Below, piece by piece: positions 6,465 to 6,911 of a stretch of 36,317 nucleotides of DNA; the stretch's first letter is position 1; each line of letters starts with the position of its first letter. Both the position numbers and the translations under genes were made by a program. The DNA is taken from IMG/VR virus record IMGVR_UViG_2617270990_000004, one strand, 5' to 3'. The notes below the pieces were generated by a model. It saw only the letters and a list, made by a program, of their open reading frames with translations, was not told the DNA's origin and searched no databases. Source of the DNA: a virus (taxonomy: Duplodnaviria > Heunggongvirae > Uroviricota > Caudoviricetes).

Positions 6465-6560
6465 ATGATTAGTCAATTACCAAACTGGAAATTTTTGCTG
6501 GTCTGGAGCATCCCTTTTTTATGGGTAGTATCCCAGTTAATTGTGGCAATTAAGGGGTAG
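6465..6560 (+). CDS. small hydrophobic peptide (31 aa), candidate
   Basis: MISQLPNWKFLLVWSIPFLWVVSQLIVAIKG, with GGGAG 9 nt upstream. Confidence 0.25.
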   Translation: MISQLPNWKFLLVWSIPFLWVVSQLIVAIKG

Positions 6561-6562
6561 CT

Positions 6563-6694
6563 ATGTCAGACAAACTCATAACGCCGGCAAAGGTCCTGTG
6601 TGTGATTGTCGGTATTTCATTTTCACTAATGCTGGTTGCTCTTTTTCTGTCCCTCGCCTGGGTGATGTTGTCTTCGTCGGGGCTGCTGGGGTGA
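6563..6694 (+). CDS. small hydrophobic peptide (43 aa), candidate
   Basis: MSDKLITPAKVLCVIVGISFSLMLVALFLSLAWVMLSSSGLLG, with AAGGGG upstream. Below the 60-aa cutoff of the ORF track. Confidence 0.3.
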   Translation: MSDKLITPAKVLCVIVGISFSLMLVALFLSLAWVMLSSSGLLG

Positions 6695-6813
6695 CAGTGA
6701 CTGATGACATCAGCAGAGCGCTGGCTTTTGCTATTAAGTGGGTGGCTGTTGGTATTGCTGTGTCTCCGATGCTGTATGGGCTGGCAAAACTGGTCATTGC
6801 GCTGAAATCGTGA
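6691..6813 (+). CDS. small hydrophobic peptide (about 40 aa, GTG start), candidate
   Basis: ...DISRALAFAIKWVAVGIAVSPMLYGLAKLVIALKS. Paralogous in sequence to the next peptide. Confidence 0.3.
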   Translation: MTVTDDISRALAFAIKWVAVGIAVSPMLYGLAKLVIALKS

Positions 6814-6824
6814 ACTTTAAAAAG

Positions 6825-6911
6825 ATGAGTGCTGAACTTATTCGGGCAATGGCATTTGCCATTCGTATTGTGGCCATTGCTGTTCTGGTCTGGGCAATCC
6901 GTTGGTGGTGA
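6825..6911 (+). CDS. small hydrophobic peptide (28 aa), translationally coupled to Rz
   Basis: [28 protein letters not shown]. Its TGA stop is separated by one nucleotide from the Rz ATG (TGATATG). Confidence 0.4.

Follow-up and report, generated by a model that had tools for sequence, protein, structure and literature searches.

In the Shewanella prophage LambdaSo, lysis by a pinholin and an endolysin of the signal-anchor-release (SAR) type requires Lcc6, a single-pass membrane protein of 65 amino acids (aa) (bioRxiv 10.1101/2024.01.23.576932). In phage Mu, the "releasin" gp25 (DUF2730) controls the escape of the SAR endolysin from the membrane (PMC9239132), and extra holin-like copies can modulate timing, as with LydC/LydD of phage P1 (PMC9025707). 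Here we describe the interval between the endolysin gene R and the spanin gene Rz of a Caudoviricetes virus (IMG/VR record IMGVR_UViG_2617270990_000004), whose 36,317-nucleotide (nt) stretch of DNA, hereafter the window, is an Escherichia coli lambdoid prophage; the R–Rz interval is 100% identical in NCTC86 and several other E. coli chromosomes. The interval contains four consecutive small open reading frames (ORFs), A to D, which look like real genes for hydrophobic single-helix peptides. We tentatively propose, with a little less than even confidence, that the gap is an accessory module in which a hairpin, a leader and four chained genes for inner-membrane peptides would adjust lysis late in infection, a role suggested by position and precedent.

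The peptides are similar to Lcc6 in being small predicted single-pass membrane proteins, neither holin nor spanin, of a lambdoid prophage with a pinholin, a SAR endolysin and Rz/Rz1. As in LambdaSo, a cluster of small ORFs is present, and Lcc6 is encoded near the prophage end, as are some Salmonella genes of the family of ORF C. In contrast, Lcc6 is described as having an N-terminal transmembrane (TM) domain with a 43-aa cytoplasmic tail and as being essential for lysis, whereas the peptides have a C-terminal TM helix with almost no tail and are encoded by dispensable accessory genes. They share with gp25 an accessory, membrane-tethered nature and a gene position close to the endolysin and spanins. 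However, gp25 has 99 aa, an N-out/C-in topology and an acidic cytoplasmic domain of 73 aa, and belongs to a holin-less phage; no DUF2730 match is found here. In topology and size the peptides resemble neither gp25 nor Lcc6.

Like the S21 68/71 pinholin/antiholin pair and P1 LydC/LydD (PMC9025707), the peptides are small membrane proteins encoded together with an endolysin but, unlike these holins, they have one helix each and lack a charged C-terminal domain and a dual-start motif. A further resemblance is to morons (lambda bor and lom, HK97 gp15), which are accessory genes at a gene boundary, variably present and often coding for membrane proteins. Classical morons have their own promoter and a downstream terminator and are expressed in the lysogen, whereas in the R–Rz gap the terminator is upstream, no promoter is detectable and the ORFs are coupled to the next late gene.

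Four hydrophobic ORFs in the R–Rz gap

The gap measures 642 nt, from the R stop codon at 6270 to the Rz ATG at 6913, and the four short hydrophobic ORFs lie where the original prediction, made from the sequence of the window, had placed them in a gap of about 640 bp (Table 1). Each ORF encodes a hydrophobic stretch of at least 17 residues, with best 17-residue Kyte–Doolittle means of 2.08, 2.82, 1.88, and 2.51 for A, B, C, and D, respectively. Hydrophobic frames cluster in the gap more densely than expected by chance: 6401-6915 contains five stop-bounded frames that have such a stretch, and as many are seen in only 5 of 3000 dinucleotide-shuffled versions of the region and in only 2 of 718 sliding windows across both strands of the 36-kb window.

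The prediction that these are small single-pass membrane peptides is in line with the hydrophobic stretches and with AlphaFold2 models. B is modeled as one continuous helix (residues 3–38) with a predicted local distance difference test (pLDDT) score of 85, and a 60-aa form of C as a short helix followed by a long one (residues 22–59, pLDDT 72). Each peptide would consist of a single helix with its hydrophobic part at the C-terminal side, behind a short N-terminus that is positively charged or amphipathic. By the positive-inside rule, the N-termini are presumably cytoplasmic. The C-termini of A–D are merely KG, SSSGLLG, KS, and RWW.

Table 1. Features of the lysis region, in window coordinates.
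Feature	Coordinates	Strand	Description
ORF A	6426-6560	+	Most likely 44 aa from TTG (MIDFSKLIRELRLMISQLPNWKFLLVWSIPFLWVVSQLIVAIKG); conserved amphipathic N-terminus and one TM helix; phrog_6632
ORF B	6563-6694	+	43 aa (MSDKLITPAKVLCVIVGISFSLMLVALFLSLAWVMLSSSGLLG), ATG to TGA; WP_001280935; phrog_4906; predicted N-in single TM helix
ORF C	6691-6813	+	40 aa; GTG 6691 overlaps the B stop (GTGA); phrog_1115
ORF D	6825-6911	+	28 aa, ATG to TGA; WP_032140280; phrog_4493; short-form paralogue of C
Hairpin	6361-6400	+	Intrinsic-terminator hairpin (6361-6393) and T-run; 15-pair stem; A-tract upstream
R 3' untranslated stretch	6271-6360	+	Conserved by alignment identity; travels with the hairpin
Holin S	4829-5044	+	Class II (phage-21-type) holin at the start of the lysis cassette; annotated "class II holin family protein" at the identical NCTC86 locus
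R	5737-6270	+	Lysozyme with Ala/Gly-rich N-terminal segment (MNAKIRYGLSAAVLALIAAGA...); annotated rrrQ/lysozyme
Rz	6913-7407	+	i-spanin; ATG 1 nt past the D stop; in the ORF list and annotation
Rz1	7133-7318	+	o-spanin, embedded within Rz

Evidence that the ORFs are coding

Conservation of the reading frames in relatives, the check that the original prediction had put forward, was analyzed in 80 IMG/VR loci with an R protein at least 94% identical to that of the window, and further in annotated E. coli genomes and phages and in contigs with more distant homologues. Ratios of nonsynonymous to synonymous substitution (dN/dS) were calculated by pooled Nei–Gojobori pairwise comparison, where the pairs are non-independent and the haplotypes few, and the values are indicative rather than formal tests. 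In the called frame, dN/dS is 0.40 for B, 0.22 for C, 0.29 for D, and 0.54 for A with its relatives of the G type, a single 45-aa ORF that occupies the gap in other prophages. The two off-frames give 0.61–2.29, and the called frame is lower than both in every case. For the N-terminus of A/G (codons 2–26) the ratio is 0.36, against 0.61 and 5.45 off-frame.

Variable sites at codon positions 1, 2, and 3 number 19, 12, and 39 in C, 10, 3, and 14 in D, and 16, 13, and 21 in B, and a third-position excess is seen for C and D. Lengths are conserved as well. B has exactly 43 aa in most of 106 clusters (formed at 90% identity), down to 62–67% identity, and C-family proteins of Escherichia and Salmonella retain both a 60-aa length and a conserved domain at the N-terminus. 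Homology blocks in BLAST alignments stop at the ORF borders, the B block being exactly 6563-6694. In every sampled D, D-long, and B copy (34 and 54 loci) the frame is open from the matched segment to the stop codon, with only single-residue variants; rare frameshift or nonsense variants are a truncation of A in three loci and small clusters of frameshifted B. We read A–D as genes because the codon-position and dN/dS signatures, the conserved lengths and the retention of the ORFs through rearrangements agree.

Extents and junctions

The first ORF was originally predicted as a 31-aa peptide, a version that runs from an internal ATG at 6465 to the TAG at 6560. The start is instead most likely TTG 6426, located 5 nt downstream of GGGAGG, because homologues in other genera begin with M-I-D-F-S-K-L at this position. 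Homologues of 44–45 aa beginning with MIDFSKLIRELR are present in Enterobacter, Klebsiella, Citrobacter, Providencia, and Salmonella. In every copy recovered by tblastn from Escherichia, Enterobacter, and Citrobacter loci, the start of the A family is a GTG or TTG behind a good Shine–Dalgarno sequence; the copy in locus L186 starts with ATG. A 70-aa form of A from GTG 6348 was rejected, as its translation would cross the terminator hairpin and its N-terminus is not conserved as protein.

The third ORF was predicted at about 40 aa, which agrees with the extent from GTG 6691; an alternative in-frame GTG at 6697 would give 38 aa up to the TGA at 6813. The 51-aa version of C called from 6658 by the Prokaryotic Genome Annotation Pipeline (PGAP) carries 11 additional residues that are read out of frame from B and are found in none of the long-form homologues. 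Other candidate forms were discarded as well. A 57-aa form (6738) and a 90-aa form (6541) extend D and C, respectively, through the neighboring gene off-frame with dN/dS of at least 1.0, and an embedded 33-aa ORF at 6704-6805 has a frame dN/dS of 1.0. An antisense ORF of 123 aa (6576-6947) is regarded as a by-product, as long stop-free antisense stretches are present in every architecture irrespective of gene order; its wobble sites coincide with position 2 of B and position 1 of D, neither of which is the most variable.

The spacers A–B, B–C, C–D, and D–Rz are 2, −4, 11, and 1 nt, the geometry of a translationally coupled late operon, in which starts lie near or overlap the previous stops. 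As predicted, the last ORF stops one nucleotide before Rz (TGAtATG, with the stop ending at 6911 and the Rz ATG at 6913), and the chain is arranged for translational coupling into Rz. The Shine–Dalgarno sequence of Rz (GGTGGTGA) falls within the end of D or, in the other prophages, of G.

Three peptide families and the paralogy of C and D

By sequence similarity the peptides fall into three families, A/G, B, and C/D. The 70-aa form of A matches phrog_6632 (E-value 1.3e-12, profile positions 2–43 of 45), B matches phrog_4906 (4.5e-21, positions 7–49 of 49), C matches phrog_1115 (6.4e-25), and D matches phrog_4493 (3.8e-6). The A family (phrog_6632) is small but genuine. It comprises proteins of 42–50 aa in several enterobacterial genera, with homologues in six genera, and a profile search of 1.84 billion representatives returns only 36 clusters, which share the motif SK[LI]I.E[LI]R.M.E[KR]L..W[KR]F followed by a variable helix.

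The similarity between the last two ORFs, pointed out originally, is well borne out: C and D of the window are 41% identical over 22 aa (E-value 2e-4), their full-length relatives are 48% identical over 44 aa (4e-14), and phrog_4493, phrog_3246, and phrog_1115 are each matched by both. The full-length relatives have 60 aa for the C type (M.KYKRILLRLTMKNGLE..AP.T.., then the helix) and 50 aa for the D type, and an intermediate form, P0204, exists. C of the window begins inside the long form, at VTVTDD. From these alignments, C and D of the window are N-terminally shortened paralogues of the 60- and 50-aa proteins, a truncation that the original prediction did not include. The short form of D with its own ATG recurs, also behind a different upstream ORF (locus L010), and a short form of the C branch, P0205 (MNAELLRAAAFAIKW...), is present on 56 contigs. 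The last codons of D (IRWW) and the Rz junction are common to the G-type ORF of other prophages.

A hairpin-led unit in many genomic contexts

Two features absent from the original account of the gap are its conserved terminator hairpin and the shuffling of its genes. The hairpin has a folding energy of −24.2 kcal/mol (z-score −5.05) and shows compensatory changes at 5 of 14 stem pairs across seven genomic contexts. In these seven contexts, A/G, C-long, or D-long follows the same hairpin and a leader of similar sequence (TTTCTG.C.TTG...AGGCA.GGGAGAA). The A family is preceded by this hairpin in all cases, often between unrelated endolysins and spanins. These alignments suggest that the hairpin is the 5' element of a mobile unit of hairpin, leader, and small ORF.

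Gene architectures were counted in 89 related loci, in 84 of which the Rz start was located. The order A-B-C-D is found in 28 loci, the single G-type ORF in 24, C(long)-B in 14, a 189-aa Ant-like gene followed by B (the arrangement of phage 933W) in 7, A-B in 3, and D(long) in 3. Further architectures are C-D, ant-A-B with or without C-D, and E-C-F-D, which has two additional small hydrophobic ORFs, and the units are present in at least 10 different orders among related prophages. In all but one of the 84 loci a small ORF ends at most about 11 nt upstream of Rz; in the remaining one, R and Rz overlap with no small ORF between them. The window and the G-type loci agree as far as codon 27 of A, and they match again over the final 15 nt of D (IRWW) and on into Rz; between these ends, 390 nt of the window replace 42 nt of G. 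This pattern suggests that the module evolves by cassette shuffling and in-frame recombination.

The unit is located after an R21-type lysozyme in E. coli and after a different SAR lysozyme in Salmonella, with an A/G or C unit between SAR lysozyme and Rz in both. In Enterobacter its neighbors are a GH19 endolysin on one side and an overlapping i/o-spanin pair on the other, and in another prophage (L186) it comes after an M15 endolysin, together with a B-like ORF. In Citrobacter it is found upstream of the tail-tip gene J and in Klebsiella inside the baseplate module, while C-like genes of Salmonella are positioned after tail-fiber genes and near the integrase end, one of them flanked by two terminators. 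Each of these positions either has late, structural, or lysis genes around it or falls at the end of the prophage. In contrast, in the K-12 prophages Qin and DLP12, in lambda and in most other enterobacterial prophages examined, the endolysin runs into or near Rz with no adjacent hydrophobic small ORF.

The related loci contain further small ORFs. In a Salmonella locus (L091), a 29-aa hydrophobic ORF (MICFVAAFMLACDGRSGWGWFLLVGLIVM) at 2724-2813 overlaps the SAR-lysozyme stop codon (ATGA), upstream of the hairpin and C-long. The additional ORFs of L010, in the same slot, are E (1314-1466, 50 aa), with a weak match to the holin family phrog_526 (E-value 0.036), and F (1631-1780, 49 aa). In L186, an ORF of about 36 aa with a basic segment and a TM segment follows the B-like gene (around 2777-2887). 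Tandem C-family paralogues of 64 and 55 aa are located in the Salmonella locus L179 (2805-3168), between a SASA-domain tail protein and a DUF1353 gene, and the second carries the N-terminus of ORF F of the E. coli locus L010, pointing to chimeric small proteins. In one of the IMG/VR loci L011-L090, a copy of the C-family gene continues in frame, after residue ~44, into a tail-fiber-assembly-like sequence, a recombination joint of the lysis-cassette unit with a tail gene.

The 3' untranslated stretch of R (Table 1) shows 84–96% identity across all the gap types of E. coli, and in Salmonella, where a different lysozyme precedes it, about 70%. It ends in a strong terminator and could give rise to a 3'-UTR (untranslated region)-derived small RNA; Rfam is negative for it. 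More generally, no Rfam match at an E-value of 1 or lower is found over 4500-8500. No sigma-70 promoter is found on the plus strand, which is the coding strand, in 4600-8200 by a simple consensus search. With a strong terminator directly ahead of them and no promoter recovered by this search, A–D are probably late-operon genes.

Because an A-tract lies upstream of it, the hairpin is possibly bidirectional as a terminator. On the minus strand, a promoter-like site at 6569-6540 (CTGACA, an 18-nt spacer, CACAAT, with a TG) points antisense into A. The site scores 9/12 in all four diverged variants of the A–B junction that were recovered. Overall, promoter-like matches in the region are at chance level. 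Together with the possibly bidirectional hairpin, it could produce an antisense RNA of about 170 nt.

Candidate functions of the module

The module is probably transcribed only within the late transcript that Q antiterminates, which also carries S, R, and Rz/Rz1, and ribosomes would pass from A through B, C, and D into Rz, because the spacers between them are so short. In the most likely role, the peptides would accumulate in the inner membrane late in infection and adjust lysis there by touching, helix to helix, the pinholin, the endolysin's SAR anchor, or the membrane anchor of Rz; the effect could be on lysis timing or efficiency. Position favors such a role, the slot between endolysin and spanin being occupied in three unrelated lysis cassettes, and the likely late-only transcription favors it as well. 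Precedents by analogy are Mu gp25 (PMC9239132) and LambdaSo Lcc6 (bioRxiv 10.1101/2024.01.23.576932). The original prediction's observation of the ORFs is correct, and its interpretation is partly supported: single-helix coding sequences, the paralogy of the last two ORFs and a layout for coupling are borne out, and lysis regulation is a reasonable candidate role.

Several points weigh against this reading. The peptides have no match to known lysis family models or in Pfam, NCBIfam, or PADLOC. The families also occur in tail, baseplate, and prophage-end positions, so the lysis-cassette position is not obligatory, and the module is dispensable, being absent from Qin, DLP12, lambda, and most other prophages examined. 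C and D lack the conserved N-terminal 20–22 residues, C has GTG as its only start, and both may be weakly expressed or decaying. In addition, the dN/dS estimates pool non-independent pairs from few haplotypes, and the promoter scan is a simple consensus search.

The peptides do not fit the classes of phage proteins with which they were compared. No Pfam or NCBIfam model of holins, antiholins, releasins, or spanins matches them, NF047966 at an E-value of 0.16 is the sole match across Pfam, NCBIfam, and PADLOC, and none of the PHROG families labeled "lysis" is matched by A–D. A TM helix is present, but a holin assignment is argued against by the lack of a model match at an E-value of 1 or lower and of a charged hydrophilic C-terminal domain. 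Assignment as releasins fails on the negative Pfam result for DUF2730 and on size, as the peptides have 28–44 aa and no soluble domain. A–D have neither the periplasmic domain nor the lipobox of a spanin, and Rz and Rz1 are present separately. A classical moron is likewise rejected, given the missing plus-strand promoter in 4600-8200, the terminator upstream (6361-6393) and ORFs that run straight into Rz.

A wider extension of the lysis role, which we consider rather unlikely, is that the hairpin–leader–small ORF unit constitutes a hitherto unrecognized mobile cassette system of enterobacterial temperate phages, in which interchangeable single-helix peptides set the lysis clock. The peptides would then act as anti-pinholins, as retainers or releasers of the SAR anchor, or as spanin gatekeepers; the upstream terminator would make expression strictly Q-dependent and in-frame recombination would generate timing variants. 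If this were true, B in Shiga-toxin (Stx) phages such as 933W would influence the timing and amount of toxin and phage release.

The strongest alternative, possible though unlikely, is that A–D are late membrane peptides with a job other than lysis, such as a block of superinfection or re-adsorption, a block of DNA entry, or a change in a host membrane protein, and that the slot before Rz is merely permissive. The families upstream of gene J in Citrobacter and in the baseplate module of Klebsiella speak for it, as do the Salmonella members after tail-fiber genes and near the integrase end, beside Hok and HicAB modules; furthermore, closely related prophages differ strongly in whether they carry the genes and in how many copies, a pattern common for accessory genes. 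Yet the missing promoter and the upstream terminator make expression in the lysogen, the stage at which exclusion functions usually operate, less likely, no PADLOC defense model is matched at an E-value of 1 or lower by A, B, C-long, D-long, or G, and the unit occupies one and the same endolysin–spanin slot in three lysis cassettes that are unrelated. Even with no role in lysis, the module would be a clean case of phages shuffling tiny genes at gene boundaries with downstream translation intact.

Another reading, which seems fairly improbable, takes at least some of the ORFs, and in particular the truncated C and D, as debris of recombination whose frames have stayed open through chance and a bias toward hydrophobic codons. 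The missing N-terminal domain of the 60- and 50-aa relatives would fit such an origin, together with the absence of an ATG in C and of a recognizable Shine–Dalgarno sequence in D, and with the occasional disrupted copies of A and B. However, a short form of 28 aa that starts at an ATG of its own (M[SN]AEL[IL]RA.AFAI) recurs behind different upstream genes and is also known for the C branch (P0205, 56 contigs), all sampled D, D-long, and B copies are open to the stop codon, and the third-position bias holds for the C/D core.

A mainly cis-acting function is improbable too. In such a scenario, translation of the ORFs would unfold the mRNA and bring ribosomes to Rz after the hairpin insert had split R from Rz, and the peptides themselves would be minor. 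The chain of spacers of at most 11 nt, the position of the Rz Shine–Dalgarno sequence within D or G, the small ORF end close to Rz in all but one locus with a located Rz, and the conserved RWW-TGA-n-ATG junction are what it would predict. A single ORF would nevertheless be enough for coupling, yet up to four are kept, and their amino-acid sequences are under purifying selection, with the A/G N-terminal motif conserved across genera. Moreover, the RWW end is kept in Citrobacter and Klebsiella with no Rz downstream, and the C family of Salmonella includes a stand-alone gene flanked by terminators.

A type I toxin–antitoxin-like pair, in which a small hydrophobic toxic peptide is checked by an antisense RNA, is very improbable: the minus-strand promoter-like site scores equally in every recovered diverged A–B junction variant and the hairpin could terminate in both directions, but such promoter-like matches are at chance level, there is no Rfam match at an E-value of 1 or lower and no Pfam match to HOK_GEF or similarity to other toxin families, and the ORFs are part of a polycistronic late operon rather than a self-contained locus.

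Prevalence and annotation

Of 5426 complete E. coli genomes, 2068 (38%) contain DNA that resembles the gap wholly or in part, and the full four-gene array in 587 of them (11%). B is found in 276 sequenced phages, mostly Shiga-toxin converting, and the ORFs occur in plaque-forming phages, namely the PhiR5/PhiR12 series and 933W. In Stx phages the timing of lysis controls when toxin and virions are released, and an unrecognized class of membrane peptides built into the lysis cassette would bear on this.

All four peptides are in public databases as hypothetical proteins, with identical proteins in RefSeq and nr, and PHROGs label their families as of unknown function. The expectation that such short ORFs usually go unannotated is only partly correct: PGAP in RefSeq calls B, the 51-aa C, and D as hypothetical proteins (WP_001280935, WP_042004856, and WP_032140280) and sometimes the 70-aa A, while most GenBank records of Stx phages omit B, including that of the reference phage 933W, where it lies between ant and Rz. 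The PHROG and RefSeq records do not show that A extends to 44 aa, that C and D are truncated, or that the module is organized behind a hairpin. Literature searches on small ORFs between R and Rz, on membrane proteins of pinholin/SAR cassettes and on ribosome profiling of O157 returned nothing on these peptides, and the four peptide strings do not occur in the supplements of the Sakai small-gene ribosome-profiling paper. K-12 lacks the genes, and small-protein surveys in K-12 could not have caught them. We class the peptides as new, uncharacterized members of the accessory membrane proteins found in phage lysis and late operons, unusual in being led by a hairpin and in being shuffled.

Neighboring genes

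The local gene order is a sialate O-acetylesterase gene, the class II holin, a YdfR-family gene, a minus-strand hypothetical gene, R, the gap, and Rz with the embedded Rz1. The N-terminal segment of R is inferred to be of the SAR type from its composition. The minus-strand gene (5359-5631) encodes 90 aa, is annotated as hypothetical by PGAP and overlaps the 3' end of the YdfR-family gene; its orientation is odd for a late lysis cassette.

The intergenic region between esterase and holin (4679-4828) contains a terminator-like hairpin at 4761-4789 and has no Rfam match. In a 2026 preprint, the prophage small RNAs PasA and PasC (Pas sRNAs) are located in this same slot between esterase and holin. 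Publications on Pas sRNAs and on prophage anti-sRNAs map these RNAs upstream of the holin, not to the R–Rz gap.

Downstream, a 74-aa ORF at 7404-7628, annotated as hypothetical (WP_000736383), overlaps the Rz stop codon (ATGA). The Rz frame is open for 155 or 164 codons among near-identical loci, and is shorter in a few truncated ones; the window has the 164-codon form. An identical lambda-like Rz is present on short or ~48 kb contigs of many unrelated "genomes" (among them Kitasatospora, Bacillus relatives, and Bacteroidetes metagenome-assembled genomes; L097-L120 and others), most likely as contamination with phage lambda DNA.

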